DNA from: a virus
Lineage: Duplodnaviria > Heunggongvirae > Uroviricota > Caudoviricetes
Reading direction: 5' to 3' (one strand)
Length of the DNA: 23,498 nt
Virus record (IMG/VR): IMGVR_UViG_3300030021_000018
Coordinates: 1 to 23,498 of that record
The notes under the pieces are model-generated. The model ran no database searches. It was not told where the DNA came from and saw only the letters and a program-made list of their open reading frames with translations. The position numbers were made by a program, and so were the translations under genes. How positions within the stretch are numbered: position 1 is the first letter of the stretch; each line of letters opens with the position of its first letter. This document shows positions 795-7,166 of this stretch, in pieces.

Positions 795-2048
795 ATGCTG
801 GAACAAATGGGCATTGCCGCGAAGCAAGCCTCGTATAAATTAGCGCAACTCTCCAGCCGCGAAAAAAATCGCGTGCTGGAAAAAATCGCCGATGAACTGG
901 AAGCACAAAGCGAAATCATCCTCAACGCTAACGCCCAGGATGTTGCTGACGCGCGTGCCAATGGCCTTGGCGAAGCGATGCTTGACCGTCTGGCACTGAC
1001 GCCCGCACGGCTGAAAGGCATTGCCGATGATGTGCGCCAGGTGTGTAACCTCGCCGATCCGGTGGGGCAGGTAATCGATGGCAGCGTACTGGACAGCGGC
1101 CTGCGTCTTGAGCGTCGTCGCGTACCGCTGGGGGTTATTGGCGTGATTTATGAAGCGCGCCCGAACGTGACGGTTGATGTCGCTTCGCTGTGCCTGAAAA
1201 CCGGTAATGCGGTGATCCTGCGCGGTGGCAAAGAAACGTGTCGCACTAACGCTGCAACGGTGGCGGTGATTCAGGACGCCCTGAAATCCTGCGGCTTACC
1301 GGCGGGTGCCGTGCAGGCGATTGATAATCCTGACCGTGCGCTGGTCAGTGAAATGCTGCGTATGGATAAATACATCGACATGCTGATCCCGCGTGGTGGC
1401 GCTGGTTTGCATAAACTGTGCCGTGAACAGTCGACAATCCCGGTGATCACAGGTGGTATAGGCGTATGCCATATTTACGTTGATGAAAGTGTAGAGATCG
1501 CTGAAGCATTAAAAGTGATCGTCAACGCGAAAACTCAGCGTCCGAGCACATGTAATACGGTTGAAACGTTGCTGGTGAATAAAAACATCGCCGATAGCTT
1601 CCTGCCCGCATTAAGCAAACAAATGGCGGAAAGCGGCGTGACATTACACGCAGATGCAGCTGCACTGGCGCAGTTGCAGGCAGGCCCTGCGAAGGTGGTT
1701 GCTGTTAAAGCCGAAGAGTATGACGATGAGTTTCTGTCATTAGATTTGAACGTCAAAATCGTCAGCGATCTTGACGATGCCATCGCCCATATTCGTGAAC
1801 ACGGCACACAACACTCCGATGCGATCCTGACCCGCGATATGCGCAACGCCCAGCGTTTTGTTAACGAAGTGGATTCGTCCGCTGTTTACGTTAACGCCTC
1901 TACGCGTTTTACCGACGGCGGCCAGTTTGGTCTGGGTGCGGAAGTGGCGGTAAGCACACAAAAACTCCACGCGCGTGGCCCAATGGGGCTGGAAGCACTG
2001 ACCACTTACAAGTGGATCGGCATTGGTGATTACACCATTCGTGCGTAA
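795..2048 (+). CDS. proA: Gamma-glutamyl phosphate reductase
   Basis: 417-aa ORF starting [21 protein letters not shown]..., recognisable as full-length E. coli ProA; GGAG-type RBS (aaGGAGcaggctgATG) upstream. Confidence 0.96.
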
Positions 2049-2162
2049 ATAAAACCGGGTGATGCAAAAGTAGCCATTTGATTCACAAGGCCATTGACGC
2101 ATCGCCCGGTTAGTTTTAACCTTGTCCACCGTGATTCACGTTCGTGAACATGTCCTTTCAGG

Positions 2163-2238
2163 GCCGATATAGCTCAGTTGGTAGAGCAGCGCATTCGTAA
2201 TGCGAAGGTCGTAGGTTCGACTCCTATTATCGGCACCA
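2163..2238 (+). tRNA. thrW: tRNA-Thr, anticodon CGU, with encoded CCA
   Basis: 76-nt sequence GCCGATATAGCTCAGTTGGTAGAGCAGCGCATTCGTAATGCGAAGGTCGTAGGTTCGACTCCTATTATCGGCACCA folds as a cloverleaf by eye: 7-bp acceptor stem GCCGATA/TATCGGC, anticodon loop TTCGTAA, T-arm GGTTCGA. Location directly after proA matches thrW. Confidence 0.95.
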
Positions 2239-2252
2239 TTTAAATCAATAAG

Positions 2253-3416
2253 TTACACATCATTAGTACCTTCCTTATTTTTTGACTGGGACAAATTTGG
2301 GACCGATGGGTTCAGGATCGAGTCTATTTGCCGTGCGTGTTCGGTAAGGTGATTAGGTGCAAGGTGAGCATATCGACGAACCATTTCGATAGACTCCCAG
2401 CCTCCCATTTCCTGTAACACTGACAACGGGACTCCGGCTTGAACCAGCCAACTTGCCCAGGTGTGTCTCAAGTCGTGAAATCTGAAATCATCAATACCAG
2501 CCCGTCTCAGCGCCGCTTTCCAGGCTGTGTTTGCGTCATACCGCATCTTCCTTACTGTTGGCGCTTTCGTTCCGTCTGGTTTGGTACAGCTTTCCTTGTA
2601 CACAAATACCCAACGGTGATGATTCCCGATTTGTTTTTTCAATACGCGACATGCAGTATCATTCAGCGCAACGCCAATTGCGCGGTTTGATTTACTCTCT
2701 TCCGGGTTTATCCATGCCACCCGGCGCTGCATATCTATTTGTTGCCATTCAAGGTTGATGATGTTCGAGCGTCTTAAGCCTGTTGCCAGTGCAAATTCAA
2801 CAACAGACTTTAATGGCTCCGGACATTCATCAATCAGCCTTTGTGCTTCATGGGGCTCCAGCCAGCGGATCCGTTTATTCTTTGGTTGAGGCACTTTAAT
2901 AATTGGTGCCTTATCCAGCATTTTCCATTCACGCTCTGCGGCTCTTAGTAGGGCCTTTATAAATGAAAGATGCGTAGCCTTCGTTGCAACGGACGCTGGT
3001 TTTGGCGTGTATTCTGGAACAGGTTTCCCTTTTTTTCTGCATGCTTCTGCCCTGAGTTTCCAGTTTTCCTCATGACGCCGGTTCGTCATTTTCTGCATTG
3101 CTGAATAAATTTTTGATTCAGTAATGTCTCTTAGTTGCATTCCTGCGAAATGTTGAAGCCAGAATCCGATCCGGCTTTTGTCATCGTCCAGTGATTTTTT
3201 ATGTGCTTTCTCTTCAAGCCACCTGACACACGCTTCCTCGAACGTTATATCAGGTATTTCACCAAGTTTGCTGACCCGCCATGCTTCAGCCTTTAGCTTG
3301 TCATGGAGTTCTGTCGCCTGCCTTTTGTCCTTTGTTCCAAGAGACTGTTTAAATCTTTTACCGTTCGGCAATGTGAAACTGGCGTACCATATTTCACCTC
3401 TGCGGAAGAGTGACAT
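2253..3416 (-). CDS. int: Tyrosine-type site-specific integrase (P22 Int-like)
   Basis: 387-aa ORF; N-terminus [33 protein letters not shown] and C-terminal catalytic region ...[42 protein letters not shown] (R..H-x-x-R..Y pattern) are typical of tyrosine recombinases; adjacent to the tRNA attachment site. Confidence 0.93.
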
Positions 3417-3948: not shown

Positions 3949-4310
3949 TATGCTCCAGCCTCCGGTGCTTTTGGCATTACTGCCCAGTGAGTGATATTGA
4001 CGTTTTCAAGGTCCCCGACCTGAAATGTCCACTGCCATTCTCCGGTTTCTTTTTGTCCCCAGGTGTACCAGAGAGAACGCCAGCCAATTAGCCAGCCTTC
4101 TCCGTTAGCATCGAATAACAAAACACTTTCATTTGCTGGTGGCAGTTCAGTTGACACTGGTATTACTTTGTTTTCCTGTGCTGCACATTTAGCTTCAAGC
4201 GCATCGAATTTACGCACCAGGTATTCAGCATCTGTTTCATTCACTTTCAGATCTCGCGGTACACATCTCCCACGAAGAAACCCTTCCATTTCTAAAACAT
4301 TCATGCGCAT
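3948..4310 (-). CDS. Hypothetical early-left protein (120 aa, Trp-rich C-terminal region)
   Basis: ATG at 4310 with GGAG upstream; its stop overlaps the start of the next gene by 1 nt; C-terminal WxxW-rich segment (GWLIGWRSLWYTWGQKETGEWQWTF). No confident family assignment. Confidence 0.55.
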   Translation of the reverse strand: MRMNVLEMEGFLRGRCVPRDLKVNETDAEYLVRKFDALEAKCAAQENKVIPVSTELPPANESVLLFDANGEGWLIGWRSLWYTWGQKETGEWQWTFQVGDLENVNITHWAVMPKAPEAGA

Positions 4311-4837
4311 TTGCGTAACTCCGATAACTCGTTAAAACGTTCCATAAACATCCCGTAGGCATGGCCCGGTGCCTGTGGAATCACTTTGAACATCTCTGTT
4401 GCCGGGATACCTTCCAGTACAGGCCAGAAAGAGCCATCATCAAGCCCGAGATCGCGGCGTTCGGTTGCCAGCATAATGAGATCGGCATATTTCACTGGCG
4501 TGCTCATAACAGGAGGTAACCCGTATTTCTCACGTATTACGGCGTCTATTTTTTCTTCCATCCGTTTATAGTCAGGAAGAAGTCGTTTCAGTGGTGCGGG
4601 GATGTCCTGGCAATATGCTTCTGTTGCATCATGCATTAAAGCTTCAAAAGCAAATTCCTGTGGCACCAGCTGGCTGCAAAGCACCGCATGTTGGGCGACA
4701 CTGTAGAAGTGTGAAAGATGTCCTGCAAAGCGACAGATATTTGAAAGGGAAACCGCGATATCGTTAATAACGATGTCGTCTTTATTTATCCTGTCATAAT
4801 AAAAATGCTTCCCGGAAAAAGTTTTAATAAATGACAT
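4301..4837 (-). CDS. HD-domain phosphohydrolase (YfbR-like 5'-deoxynucleotidase family candidate)
   Basis: ATG at 4837 with GGAG RBS (cgtGGAGaacaaaATG); the product contains H...HD metal-binding signatures (LSHFYSVAQHAV...LMHDATEAY). The GTG at 4864 offered by the ORF track lacks an RBS. Confidence 0.7.
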   Translation of the reverse strand: MSFIKTFSGKHFYYDRINKDDIVINDIAVSLSNICRFAGHLSHFYSVAQHAVLCSQLVPQEFAFEALMHDATEAYCQDIPAPLKRLLPDYKRMEEKIDAVIREKYGLPPVMSTPVKYADLIMLATERRDLGLDDGSFWPVLEGIPATEMFKVIPQAPGHAYGMFMERFNELSELRKCA

Positions 4838-4864
4838 TTTGTTCTCCACGTATATGCGCTGCAC

Positions 4865-5381
4865 CGCGCTGAATTCGGGTAAAAGGAAGCCCTCACCGTC
4901 CGGCGATTATTGAGTCATTTACATTTCCATAAATGCCCCCGTAGGGGCGGTTAGTTTCTCCACAAAACAGAGAAGAACACCTGCGGTGGCAGCCGCCCGG
5001 ATGGATTGGGTTATGAGCCCGTCGTCCGGTGATGCTCTTCTCTGTTTTGTAAAAAGGACGGTACCAGCCGGAAGCAAGGGTACAAGCTGGTACCGCCAAG
5101 ACTACACACAGCATAAAGTTGTGGTGCCGGGTGCCTCCCGGTGCCTGGCGAAGGTTGCACACCAGGCGGGTGGGTATCCACAGAAGGTCGACTGTCAGCC
5201 TCAACCTTAACCCGCGTGCGCTGAGCCGCATTCACCACAACGCTAAGGATTCTCTCTGGTTGAAAATACTTAGCTGTTATGTGCCTGCTTTTAGCCACAT
5301 CAGGCGAGGTGGACCTAGTTATTCCCCAACAACAAGGATTCGGTTAATCTGGTTATCCCCAACAACGCAAAAGGAAAAGAA
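4865..5381. other. About 0.5 kb GC-rich non-coding region with nested inverted repeats (candidate structured RNA and/or divergent promoter region)
   Basis: No ORF with a plausible RBS; track ORFs here overlap one another in several frames. Perfect 15-bp inverted repeat 4962-4976 / 5036-5050 (acaaaacagagaaga / tcttctctgttttgt); 10-bp stem 5059-5068 / 5086-5095; long-range 9-bp pairing 5118-5126 / 5233-5241; several GC-only hairpins (4945-4958, 5127-5141, 5143-5167). Confidence 0.5.
5318..5366 (+). repeat. Two direct copies of GTTAT(T)CCCCAACAAC about 34 bp apart, just upstream of the 5382 start codon
   Basis: gttattccccaacaac at 5318-5333 and gttatccccaacaac at 5352-5366. The second copy contains TTATCCCCA, one mismatch from the DnaA-box consensus TTATCCACA. 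Confidence 0.6.
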
Positions 5382-5816
5382 ATGTCCGGTAATATCTATA
5401 CGCTGTACAAATCCCACTGTGAAAATGTTGGAAAGTATCGGGGCATTGAAATCAGTGGGGTAGTGTCATCAGTCGAAATAAGCAAAGTTGAATCAAGGGC
5501 AACATTACTTACTCTTTTGGACCTTGTCTTACATGAGCACCGGAAGAAATTCGGCACTCCCTATAATCAGTTGAATGGGAAAAAGGCTCTGGTTCACCTT
5601 ATTCTGATGAAGCATCACTGGATGCCAAAACAGATTAATGAGATGAAATTTGATGAACTTCTTCTTTCAATTCAGGATGAACTCACACTTGATAAAATAA
5701 GCGTAACCGCCCAGAAATTTTTAGATTATCGAGACTGGAGATCACAAATTCATCACTTTGATGATTTTGACGAAAATGAATGGGATCCTAATTTGTCTGC
5801 ACAATATCTAAAGTAA
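5382..5816 (+). CDS. Orphan hypothetical protein (144 aa) in an AT-rich segment
   Basis: ATG at 5382 preceded by AAGGAAAAGAA; a 435-nt open frame in visibly AT-rich DNA, where long ORFs are unlikely by chance; no homolog recognised. Confidence 0.65.
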   Translation: MSGNIYTLYKSHCENVGKYRGIEISGVVSSVEISKVESRATLLTLLDLVLHEHRKKFGTPYNQLNGKKALVHLILMKHHWMPKQINEMKFDELLLSIQDELTLDKISVTAQKFLDYRDWRSQIHHFDDFDENEWDPNLSAQYLK

Positions 5817-5994
5817 CATCCTGTGATAAAACCGTGATTTCCTGATCCAGTTTTTTTAAGGAGTCTATTGTTTCCTGTCGATAAGACAGCACTTCACGAA
5901 GCTGGTTTATAGCTGCCAGCTTCTTTGTCATCCACTCATAAATTTCCTCATCTGTGTAGCCAGGCGCGACGATTTTGGGTTCTGTTTTGTGCAT
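5788..5994 (-). CDS. Small hypothetical protein (68 aa, predicted coiled coil) at the position where an N-like gene would sit
   Basis: ATG at 5994..5992 with GAGGAG 8 nt upstream (ttGAGGAGatgtgaaATG); the ORF-track TTG start at 6009 is rejected. Its 3' end overlaps the 3' end of the 5382..5816 gene by 29 bp (convergent). No arginine-rich N-type motif. Confidence 0.5.
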   Translation of the reverse strand: MHKTEPKIVAPGYTDEEIYEWMTKKLAAINQLREVLSYRQETIDSLKKLDQEITVLSQDVTLDIVQTN

Positions 5995-6052
5995 TTCACA
6001 TCTCCTCAAGTTATCAGTTACTTGTTGATGGGGACCAGATTGTTAAAGAGCT

Positions 6053-6078
6053 AAGCGTCCTGTAGGGCGCTTTTTTGT
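6053..6078 (+). terminator. Candidate intrinsic terminator (plus strand)
   Basis: aagcgtcc-tgta-gggcgctt stem-loop followed by ttttttg (6071-6077); orientation is right for stopping rightward transcription before it runs antisense into cI. Confidence 0.5.
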
Positions 6079-6241
6079 TGCTAACGAATCATCCTGGACT
6101 TCATATGCCCCAGGCGGCTACTTCGTGGGCGTCCTGCCTGTTCGTTATCTTTGATATAAAATCTAACTTAACTTAGTTATTATGGCAAGAGAAAACACCA
6201 AACTTTTCTTAGTTCGGTGCCTTAGTTAGAGAAGAGAGGTC

Positions 6242-6868
6242 TTAGAGTTCGTATTGAACTCCTTTGACTACACCAATGATAAGGCAATTACCATTGATAG
6301 GGATGTTGGGATACCGAGGATTTAATGGCACTAAAAACTTTTGAGGGCCATCGATGACTAATTTTTTTACTGTAGCTTCGTTTGTTCCATCAAGTCGAGC
6401 GATGACTATTTTTCCATGACGAGGTTCTGCATCTGGATCTACAATCACTGTTGCGCCTTCTGGTATTGTTGGGAGGCCATTAGGGTTAGTCATGGAGTCA
6501 CCTTTAACCTCTAATGCAAATGAGTTATCACCAATCTTTAATGATGTATCTACCCACTTGTCCACTTCACTAAACACTTCTGCTGCCCTGCACTCAGTAA
6601 ACTGCCCAGCCTGAACCCACGATATTACAGGAACTCTGCGCATGTTTGTGACGAGTTTGCCTTCAAACTCAGCACCATAAAGAATGTAATCTATTGACGT
6701 ATTGAAGAACTTCGCTAATTTCGAAAGTGCCTCCCCACCAGGGGTATTGATGTCTTTCTCCCAGTACCCCACAGCAACGTCGCTTACTCCACAAAATTTA
6801 CCCAATTCTTTCTGGGACGTTCCGGTAACTCTTCTCAGAGCTTTTATACGCTGACCAACCGTTTCCAT
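6242..6868 (-). CDS. cI: CI/C2-type phage repressor (HTH plus S24 LexA-like autopeptidase domain)
   Basis: 208 aa; N-terminal HTH (QKELGKFCGVSDVAVGYWEKD), C-terminal S24 signature with GDSM and downstream Lys (EATVKKLV); divergent from a Cro-like gene across a 97-bp operator region. Confidence 0.9.
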   Translation of the reverse strand: METVGQRIKALRRVTGTSQKELGKFCGVSDVAVGYWEKDINTPGGEALSKLAKFFNTSIDYILYGAEFEGKLVTNMRRVPVISWVQAGQFTECRAAEVFSEVDKWVDTSLKIGDNSFALEVKGDSMTNPNGLPTIPEGATVIVDPDAEPRHGKIVIARLDGTNEATVKKLVIDGPQKFLVPLNPRYPNIPINGNCLIIGVVKGVQYEL

Positions 6869-6965
6869 AGGAGCACCATTTCTTGAATTGCTAAGTAATC
6901 TTAGTTTTTATTGACCAAAGATAGATTTGTAATTAGCATCTAATAAAACTTAGTTTGGAGGGCGT
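6869..6965. promoter_or_regulatory. Immunity operator/promoter region (OR with divergent PRM/PR candidates)
   Basis: Palindromes ctaagtaatcttag (6891-6904) and attagcatctaat (6932-6944) sharing CTAAG/CTTAG-type half-sites; TTGACC (6911-6916) with a weak -10 candidate TAGCAT 17 bp downstream, oriented toward cro; GGAGGG RBS before the cro ATG. Confidence 0.6.
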
Positions 6966-7166
6966 ATGACAACTGACGATATCGAAAGCTACTTCGGCAG
7001 TATTGAGAAAGTTGCTGCTTTTTTCGGCATAACAACTGAAGCCGTTTATCAGTGGCGAAACCGTCCGGGCCAGTTAATTCCAAAAGGACGTGCAGCAGAA
7101 GCTGCATATAGAACTTGCGGACGGTTGCCATTTAAACCTGAGCTTTATGAAAAATCTAATGGATAA
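6966..7166 (+). CDS. cro: Cro-like HTH regulator
   Basis: 66-aa ORF divergent from cI, with a GGAGGG RBS; small size, basic C-terminus and position are as expected for Cro. Confidence 0.8.
   Translation: MTTDDIESYFGSIEKVAAFFGITTEAVYQWRNRPGQLIPKGRAAEAAYRTCGRLPFKPELYEKSNG

Follow-up and report, generated by a model that had tools for sequence, protein, structure and literature searches.

A convergent gene pair of lambdoid prophages as a candidate defence gene with a lytic-phase self-immunity partner

We consider a pair of convergent genes, A (144 amino acids, aa) and B (68 aa), on a 23,498-nucleotide stretch of viral DNA (IMG/VR record IMGVR_UViG_3300030021_000018; the whole stretch is called the window below), and compare it with experimentally characterised phage gene pairs that are laid out in a similar manner. 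The closest of these is Tab/anti-Tab of the Pseudomonas phage JBD26 (Patel et al. 2024, PMC10884400), in which anti-tab lies in the late operon and is co-transcribed with it, tab lies on the opposite strand with a promoter of its own, and the Tab defence cannot be maintained without the counter-defence. In the GenBank record of JBD26, atab (plus strand) and tab (minus strand) overlap convergently by 47 bp. A and B have in common with this pair the convergent arrangement, the overlapping 3' ends, a gene opposed to the lytic operon in which it sits, and the small size of the proteins. The proteins themselves, however, are different: hmmsearch and blastp find no significant match between A/B and JBD26 gp31/gp30, and the sizes are 83 and 83 aa for Tab/anti-Tab against 144 and 68 aa for A/B. 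The tab gene, moreover, is placed between terS and terL in a Mu-like phage, and both the phenotype of Tab and its target, the tape measure protein, are known.

A second comparison is provided by phage phi80, where the late operon controlled by Q contains atiEcA and is interrupted by taiEcA, which runs the other way (He et al. 2024, PMC11364771); in this "noncontiguous operon" the Q-driven read-through lowers the level of Tai (PMC11364771). Like A/B, the Tai/Ati pair belongs to enterobacterial lambdoid prophages and consists of an opposed larger gene with a small partner in the operon. Unlike A/B, taiEcA (204 aa) and atiEcA (76 aa) are divergent and overlap at their 5' ends, and A/B give no significant match to phi80 Orf63/Orf64. 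A third system, TERi (TerI/anti-TerI1/anti-TerI2) of the Listeria phage phi10403S, follows a similar logic and has a conserved promoter slot that carries alternating cargo (bioRxiv 10.1101/2025.02.27.640495). This slot parallels the 5313-5366 segment and the 6053-6079 terminator that the window has in common with PhiR29_1, and the two immunity proteins of TERi parallel B and a longer variant of B, termed B' here. The host of TERi is Gram-positive, though, terI (65 aa) lies fully within its complementary gene, and the comparison is one of layout alone.

Another group of systems shares the genomic neighbourhood of A/B rather than the layout. RexAB of lambda and SieB/Esc of P22, the latter with the sas antisense RNA, are defence morons expressed in the lysogen and located between cI/pL and the early-left genes. 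BstA-aba of BTP1 (PMC8585504) is described as a further defence moron of this neighbourhood, and all of these systems have a self-immunity determinant built in. The proteins of these systems are unrelated to A and B. RexB and SieB are membrane proteins while A and B are soluble, and the immunity is given by a DNA element or an internal translation product, whereas A/B have a separate convergent gene. Judged by analogy, A/B match the layout of Tab/anti-Tab and, more loosely, those of Tai/Ati and TERi, and they are architectural analogues of Tab/aTab and Tai/Ati, not members of these families.

There is good support for regarding A/B as a true accessory cassette of two genes that is mobile and carries strand-specific transcription signals. 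As to the role of the cassette, we favour, by analogy with the systems above, an account in which A would be a defence or exclusion effector expressed in the lysogen and B a self-immunity antagonist made in the lytic phase, and we give this account a probability of roughly 0.45. We favour it because of the linkage of the two genes, the selection on them, the rule that their orientation follows, the terminators inside B, the operator-linked pL-like promoter, the asymmetric decay of the pair, and the precedents.

Families, linkage and selection

Gene A (5382..5816, plus strand) starts with ATG and is preceded by the Shine-Dalgarno region AAGGAAAAGAA (5371..5381, plus strand). Gene B (5788..5994, minus strand) is taken in the form annotated by the NCBI annotation pipeline PGAP, with its ATG at 5994 and, 7 nt before it, the Shine-Dalgarno sequence GAGGAG (6002..6007, minus strand), both ribosome-binding sites (RBSs) being read from the sequence; a longer form of B with a TTG start (5788..6009, minus strand) has 73 aa. 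An earlier note on this DNA had described the two open reading frames (ORFs), both RBSs and a convergent 3' overlap of 29 bp (5788..5816), and the ORF list and the sequence bear this description out. The same note took the genes to be orphans, which they are not. A is a member of the NCBIfam family NF033230 ("ECs1072 family phage-associated protein"; 157.8 bits against a cut-off of 70, with residues 4-144 aligned on profile positions 2-142) and of phrog_5286 (1.5e-90, residues 1-144 of 144), and B is a member of phrog_1744 (6e-35, residues 1-68 on profile positions 1-68). In E. coli both genes have a PGAP annotation; the record of Shigella phage SfIV is without a B annotation, and the SfIV DNA encodes a 97% identical copy.

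With A as the query, a single-protein scan of genome contigs recovers identical copies only, and an exhaustive HMMER search gives 65 cluster representatives at E<=1e-3, mostly of 145-155 aa and 25-40% identical. In the alignment of this family H72 and W134 are invariant and R54, L64, G66, A69 and W80 are nearly so. A HEPN-like Rx4-6H motif was considered for A and rejected, as inspection of the family alignment finds no such motif; a Pfam scan of 51 members of the family gives no consistent family. Structure prediction, which the earlier note had proposed together with homology searches, adds to these function-unknown families an all-helical A, in which four or five short helices come after a long helical hairpin (AlphaFold2, predicted local distance difference test (pLDDT) 93.7), and the predicted fold has no known relative. 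For B, a short N-terminal strand pair and one 53-residue helix (15-67) are predicted from the single sequence (AlphaFold2, pLDDT 89.9), and the homologues of B carry an N-terminal (E/Q)P(Y/I)(F/V)xxPG...E(L/I)x(D/E)W(L/M) motif ahead of a heptad-like helix. A word-indexed search with B as the query returns mostly sequences that are more than 90% identical; its low-identity matches are frameshifted or error-laden metagenome calls and are left unused. Both proteins are hydrophilic (grand average of hydropathy -0.47 for A and -0.50 for B), acidic or near-neutral, and soluble.

Do the two genes belong together? The loci found with A as the seed (about 103, forming 12 clusters at 80% A identity, from Escherichia, Proteus, Providencia and Enterobacter) have a convergent B homologue in all cases but one, L004. 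At the 3' end of every diverged A homologue (32-35%; Proteus, Enterobacter, Providencia and metagenomes) a small convergent ORF is encoded by the other strand and is homologous to B, and the linked pairs diverge to ~25-35% identity in A and ~23-33% in B. Among complete E. coli genomes A is present in 421 and B in 414. This conserved convergent arrangement exceeds chance by far. With B as the seed, 137 loci are found, 90 of which contain the convergent pair and 44 of which contain B only, despite room for A. These B-only loci keep fragments of the A 3' end, and several independent deletions or pseudogenisations are seen among them. The alleles also move apart: in E. albertii, A is 72% identical and the N-terminus of B is 98% identical, and distinct B alleles and repressors are found beside identical A proteins.

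In a Providencia/Proteus sub-type the cassette has three genes, a short B followed by the longer B-like paralogue B', both converging on A. B' lies on the minus strand in L012 (4284-4892), L106 (3733-4305) and L107 (3784-4392), has 190-202 aa with the motif GDEPFVY..L..WLEQQ, and overlaps the 3' end of A by 167-227 bp; it is missing from the called genes listed at the L012 locus.

Selection was estimated by the Nei-Gojobori method on nine diverged pairs. Residues 1-115 of A give an omega of 0.08-0.20 in the two of nine pairs with an estimable synonymous divergence (dS), which is saturated in the others, and residues 1-55 of B give 0.07-0.35 (six of nine pairs). Between E. coli alleles the changes in A are all synonymous, and B has 3-5 synonymous against 2 non-synonymous changes. 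Judged by these estimates, A and B are real protein genes under purifying selection. The earlier note had offered its proposal for refutation by a lack of conservation or purifying selection in either ORF, or by a housekeeping phage function for the 144-aa protein; both ORFs are conserved and constrained, and A matches no housekeeping phage function.

The overlap between the genes, which that note had put at the centre, behaves differently. Relatives overlap by 29-110 bp or have no overlap at all (gaps of 52-471 bp). In the overlapping part the A frame has an omega of 0.15-0.56 in eight of the nine pairs and 1.05 in the ninth, and the B tail is unconstrained (0.45-1.6), so that the overlap length drifts. 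The 29-bp overlap as a conserved functional element is therefore rejected, and it is a by-product of tight convergent packing; what is conserved is the convergent orientation relative to the lytic operon.

These results also bear on the view that A and B are two independent genes, B being an ordinary early or late gene and A an unrelated moron for lysogenic conversion or anti-defence, which would travel together only because they overlap. The persistence of B without A at many loci is in line with this view, as is the independent recombination of B alleles relative to A. The co-occurrence, however, holds in the gapped relatives as well, and the linkage spans three operon types, several phage backbones and proteins that have diverged to ~25-35% identity. 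Hitch-hiking is unlikely because the linkage survives that much rearrangement, and we regard two independent genes as a very improbable explanation.

Orientation and transcription signals

The cassette is found in three operon contexts. It follows a pL-like promoter beside cI in the window, SfIV, E. albertii and Providencia/Proteus; it lies between cII and O in the pR operon of the O157 Sakai prophage Sp4; and it lies between Q antiterminators, of the Antiterm type or the antitermQ/DUF1133 type, and holins that represent at least three Pfam families. In one Proteus lineage the pair immediately precedes the genes for holin and lysozyme, and no Q gene was recognised in the retrieved flank. Across the pL, pR and Q-to-holin contexts, and in 12 of 12 clusters, B follows the direction of the operon around it and A is the one gene that opposes this operon. 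In Sakai Sp4 (L246 19168-19677, plus strand) we observe an unannotated B-like ORF between the cII-like ECs_1071 and ECs1072 (now ECs_5703); it runs in the direction of the pR operon and reaches far into ECs1072 in antisense.

In the window, a pL-like promoter directed into B is located by the promoter scan at 6160..6188 on the minus strand (-35 TTGCCA at 6188-6183, a spacer of 17 nt, -10 TAGATT at 6165-6160). It is overlapped by an OL-like operator region (6153..6232) of CTAAG-N4-CTTAG-type half-palindromes, belonging to the repeat families D1, D2 and D5, which recur in the cI-cro intergenic region (6888-6955). Since the operator-like repeats over the leftward promoter are the same as those between cI and cro, we infer a pL/OL arrangement. 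B is the first ORF 3' of this promoter, has the same direction as the early-left operon, and is predicted to be repressor-controlled and immediate-early. The earlier note had seen B in the place of an N-like first leftward gene, but without an arginine-rich motif. As an N-like antiterminator B is rejected: it is acidic (pI 4.8), it is predicted to form a single long helix, and it has homologues in pR and late operons too.

The repressor control predicted for B is also where a toxin-antitoxin (TA)-like module, as the earlier note had suggested, meets a difficulty. In such an addiction module A would be a toxin kept in check by B, or the roles would be exchanged, or the control would come from antisense RNA pairing where the 3' ends overlap, and the module would stabilise the prophage. 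The tight linkage, the presence of one small partner, and the decay of the larger partner while the small one stays, as with orphan antitoxins, are compatible with it. The convergent, 3'-overlapping transcripts also resemble txpA/RatA and bsrG/SR4, the convergent 3'-overlapping pairs of Bacillus prophages. Yet the two genes are not co-transcribed, and an autoregulated operon is impossible in a convergent layout; B would be repressed along with pL in the lysogen, leaving the "antitoxin" absent exactly when it is needed; no toxin or antitoxin domain is found in Pfam, NCBIfam or PADLOC; both proteins are soluble and hydrophilic, without the character of membrane toxins; and A occurs without B in L004. 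A type II TA operon is rejected on the convergent layout and the missing toxin or antitoxin matches in these databases, and a type I TA system, with a small hydrophobic membrane toxin and a non-coding antisense RNA, on the ground that both partners encode conserved, hydrophilic proteins and are under purifying selection. Classical TA is thus disfavoured by the orientation of the genes, by the predicted repressor control of B and by the absence of toxin traits, and we find an addiction or TA-like module quite improbable.

Signals on the A-sense strand point to an end of A transcription within B. A hairpin of the intrinsic-terminator type with a T-rich tail (5898..5932, plus strand) is predicted inside B codons 22-32, the DNA being dual-coded here; the hairpin itself covers 5898-5923 (free energy (dG) -14.2) and is followed by TTTGTCATC. 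Of the 12 lineages, 11 have an equivalent A-sense hairpin within B, 26-83 nt beyond the stop codon of A (dG -11.5 to -14.8 kcal/mol); in the twelfth, L012, its counterpart lies within the B' ORF, at +154. The B codons for "KAALEE(R/Q)L" encode the hairpin in the main group. Over 18 distinct main-group sequences 94% of the cells pair, with double changes in three pairs, and 17 G.U wobble cells pair on the A-sense strand only, being A.C mismatches in the B-sense RNA. From these patterns of base pairing, the predicted terminator of A is well supported.

A second, stronger A-sense terminator is predicted upstream of B (6053..6079, plus strand; hairpin 6053-6072 followed by TTTTTTG). It lies within the part that is variable relative to SfV, SfII and mEp460, is common to PhiR29_1, and is likely a backstop that shields the pL/cI region from rightward read-through. 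No comparable B-sense terminator is found between B and A, so leftward transcription would cross A in antisense before it reaches the STnc100-like block and the early-left genes. The earlier note had stated that no terminator lies between the two genes, which is literally correct but overlooks the A-sense terminator-like hairpins at 5898-5923, in B, and at 6053-6072. Its proposal of antisense coupling is plausible, as B lies behind an operator-controlled pL-like promoter whose transcript must cross A in antisense.

The region upstream of A (5313..5366, plus strand) contains a direct repeat, GTTAT(T)CCCCAACAAC, with copies at 5318-5333 and 5352-5366. This region is common to PhiR29_1, where it is ahead of a different cargo gene on the plus strand. 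An inverted repeat is observed directly upstream of the A start in L022 (~3950-4000), L027, L013 and L016, where it partly covers the Shine-Dalgarno sequence. It has arms of 12-16 nt and a loop of ~15 nt (e.g., CCCCGTTTGATATTGT...ACAATATCAAACGGGG); the arm sequences vary by lineage with complementarity kept, and the window has none. It may control A, either as a hairpin in the RNA or as an operator.

An exchangeable slot in an SfIV-like prophage

The two genes are held by an SfIV-like lambdoid prophage at thrW, and the window also includes proA and the tRNA-Thr(CGU) gene (thrW, 2163-2238). The integrase (2253-3416, minus strand), the early-left genes yfdT and yfdR, a cI repressor of the LexA/S24 type (6242-6868, minus strand) and cro (6966-7166, plus strand) complete the setting, and the region is 98-99.7% identical to SfIV and several E. 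coli phages and prophages.

Within this prophage the cassette is a variable cargo slot (5313..6082) between a conserved STnc100-like block and a conserved pL-proximal segment. The breakpoints by blastn are 5312 and 6083-6085 relative to SfV, SfII and mEp460, and 5366 and 6035 relative to PhiR29_1. The slot is filled by orf33 in SfV, by a 63-aa plus-strand ORF in SfII and by an HTH_17 protein in mEp460; PhiR29_1 retains 5313-5366 and the 6053-6079 terminator and has another plus-strand gene in between, and this points to a conserved slot for rightward expression whose cargo can be exchanged. The slot flanks are present in 2819 of 5426 E. coli genomes (52%) and the cassette in ~415 (~8%), and one and the same A protein adjoins at least three different repressor types. 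The reading of the pair as a moron-type accessory cassette, made in the earlier note, is thereby supported by the variable slot, by the other cargo in SfV, SfII, mEp460 and PhiR29_1, and by the recurrence of the cassette at further classical moron sites such as Q-to-holin.

The patchy occurrence has to be considered together with the orientation rule, as the latter invites a different account in which the cassette would be a toggle between lysis and lysogeny: A, through its transcription or its protein, would damp leaky read-through of the lytic operon in lysogens, and B, produced as soon as the operon is active, would lift this brake. B lies with and A against the pL, pR or late operon in every context, the terminators are strand-specific, the inverted repeat over the A RBS in several lineages suggests extra control of A, and the lowering of Tai levels by Q expression in phi80 indicates that such antisense effects exist. 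Against this, the cassette is dispensable and patchy, at ~8% of the E. coli genomes against 52% for its flanks, and unrelated alternative cargo fills the same slot. Such a brake would have to work equally well in operons of all three kinds (early-left, early-right and late) in unrelated phages, which makes it a less parsimonious explanation than an accessory function complete in itself, and the strong protein-level constraint on A (omega 0.08-0.2) is unneeded for pure transcriptional interference. We consider a toggle of this kind improbable.

The alternative cargo of PhiR29_1 (L247 ~1930-2454, plus strand) is a coiled-coil protein whose C-terminal end, CxxC...CxxC, resembles a zinc ribbon, and it has no match in Pfam or PADLOC; counter-oriented like A, it is a candidate for another lysogen-expressed moron. 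Beside the A/B cassette of one viral contig we observe a PemK/MazF-like toxin gene (L028 4102-4503, minus strand), which suggests that the neighbourhood gathers accessory or defence genes.

The pair had also been described as an AT-rich block unlike its flanks. The G+C content over 5250-6000 is 0.37-0.42, which contrasts mainly with the left flank (0.50-0.57 over 4800-5400; ~0.45-0.51 further out), while the cI region to the right (0.37-0.45) is similarly AT-rich. The left flank includes a GC-rich structured block (4937-5312) whose best Rfam match (5048-5271, minus strand) covers the full STnc100 model (RF02076) at 43.4 bits, below the gathering score of 47, with E 1e-7; there is a weak DicF-like match too. 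The block is conserved in about half of the complete E. coli genomes, where PGAP labels it "frameshifted hypothetical protein", and it is probably a prophage small RNA (sRNA) that is co-transcribed with the early-left operon or arises from it by processing. Beside the A homologue in L004 (4635-4758) and L105 (~4140-4600) there is a related non-coding block, likewise GC-rich. In L004 it lies on the other side of A, and this block alone matches 934 E. coli genomes. The cassette and the sRNA-like block seem to share insertion neighbourhoods. Further to the left, the window is without ~1.3 kb that SfIV and SfV have between yfdR and the block (window 4701-4948; counterparts in L002/L003 at 1453-1700 and from 2993). 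The missing segment holds yfdQ/yfdP-like genes, orf31 and orf32, and the early-left operon differs here through a deletion or mosaicism.

Defence with self-immunity as a working account

We return to the account in which A is a lysogen-expressed effector and B its lytic-phase antagonist. A would be a separate transcription unit running against the lytic operon and ending at a terminator within the B codons. In the lysogen the repressor would silence pL, so that only A is made, and A would act on superinfecting phages by exclusion, abortive infection or interference with assembly. Upon induction, transcription from pL (from pR or the Q-dependent late promoter in relatives) would allow B to be made, and B, as a small acidic protein of a single helix, would neutralise A, probably by binding to it. 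The lytic read-through, being antisense to A, may at the same time lower A expression by transcriptional interference or RNA pairing. As the outcome, the prophage would escape its own weapon.

Several observations weigh against this account. The entries for NF033230, phrog_5286 and phrog_1744 record no function, partner relationship or architecture, neither A nor B has a Pfam match, and PADLOC-DB 2.0.0 gives no match for A or B, whether the window or the Proteus copies are used. The window has no convincing sigma-70 promoter for A: the promoter scan found none, and the best candidate by position weight matrix (TTCCCC, 17 nt, TAATCT; score 5.4), located within 5313-5366, is weak. A is present without B at one locus, L004; only a truncated B-like ORF of 49 aa is found at L105; and B appears frameshifted beside an intact A in E. 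albertii. These three cases are uncomfortable for a strict rule that the defence cannot exist without its counter-defence. The retention of B after the loss of A could equally mean that B has a function of its own.

The literature, searched by accession, PHROG or NCBIfam identifier, gives nothing on these families, and "ECs1072" appears only in one microarray table, where it is among the genes with changed expression at the growth transition of Sakai in glucose minimal medium (PMC2241611). As support for a defence role this listing is weak. In its most specific form, the defence account would make A a new family of anti-phage effectors, with a fold that differs from every solved or predicted viral structure, and B a dedicated protein inhibitor. 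The two would also be wired at the RNA level, through the A terminator in the helix codons of B and the lytic read-through antisense to A, into an operon-agnostic immunity switch that functions in whichever lytic operon (pL, pR or late) it has entered; this form we hold as tentative and somewhat unlikely.

The family is common, being present in ~8% of complete E. coli genomes, in the Shigella serotype-converting phage SfIV, in Sp4 of O157:H7 Sakai and in prophages of Proteus, Providencia and Enterobacter, and B is often left unannotated in it, as in SfIV and Sakai. As predicted from its sequence, the B gene would be a clean example of DNA in which one strand codes for a protein helix and the other carries a strand-specific terminator. 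A search heuristic for further systems is offered by the orientation rule, in which a small co-oriented partner accompanies a gene opposed to the lytic operon. If the defence account is true, a new pair of effector and inhibitor would be added to the few prophage defences with a cognate self-immunity, in an architecture that would be portable between early-left, early-right and late operons.

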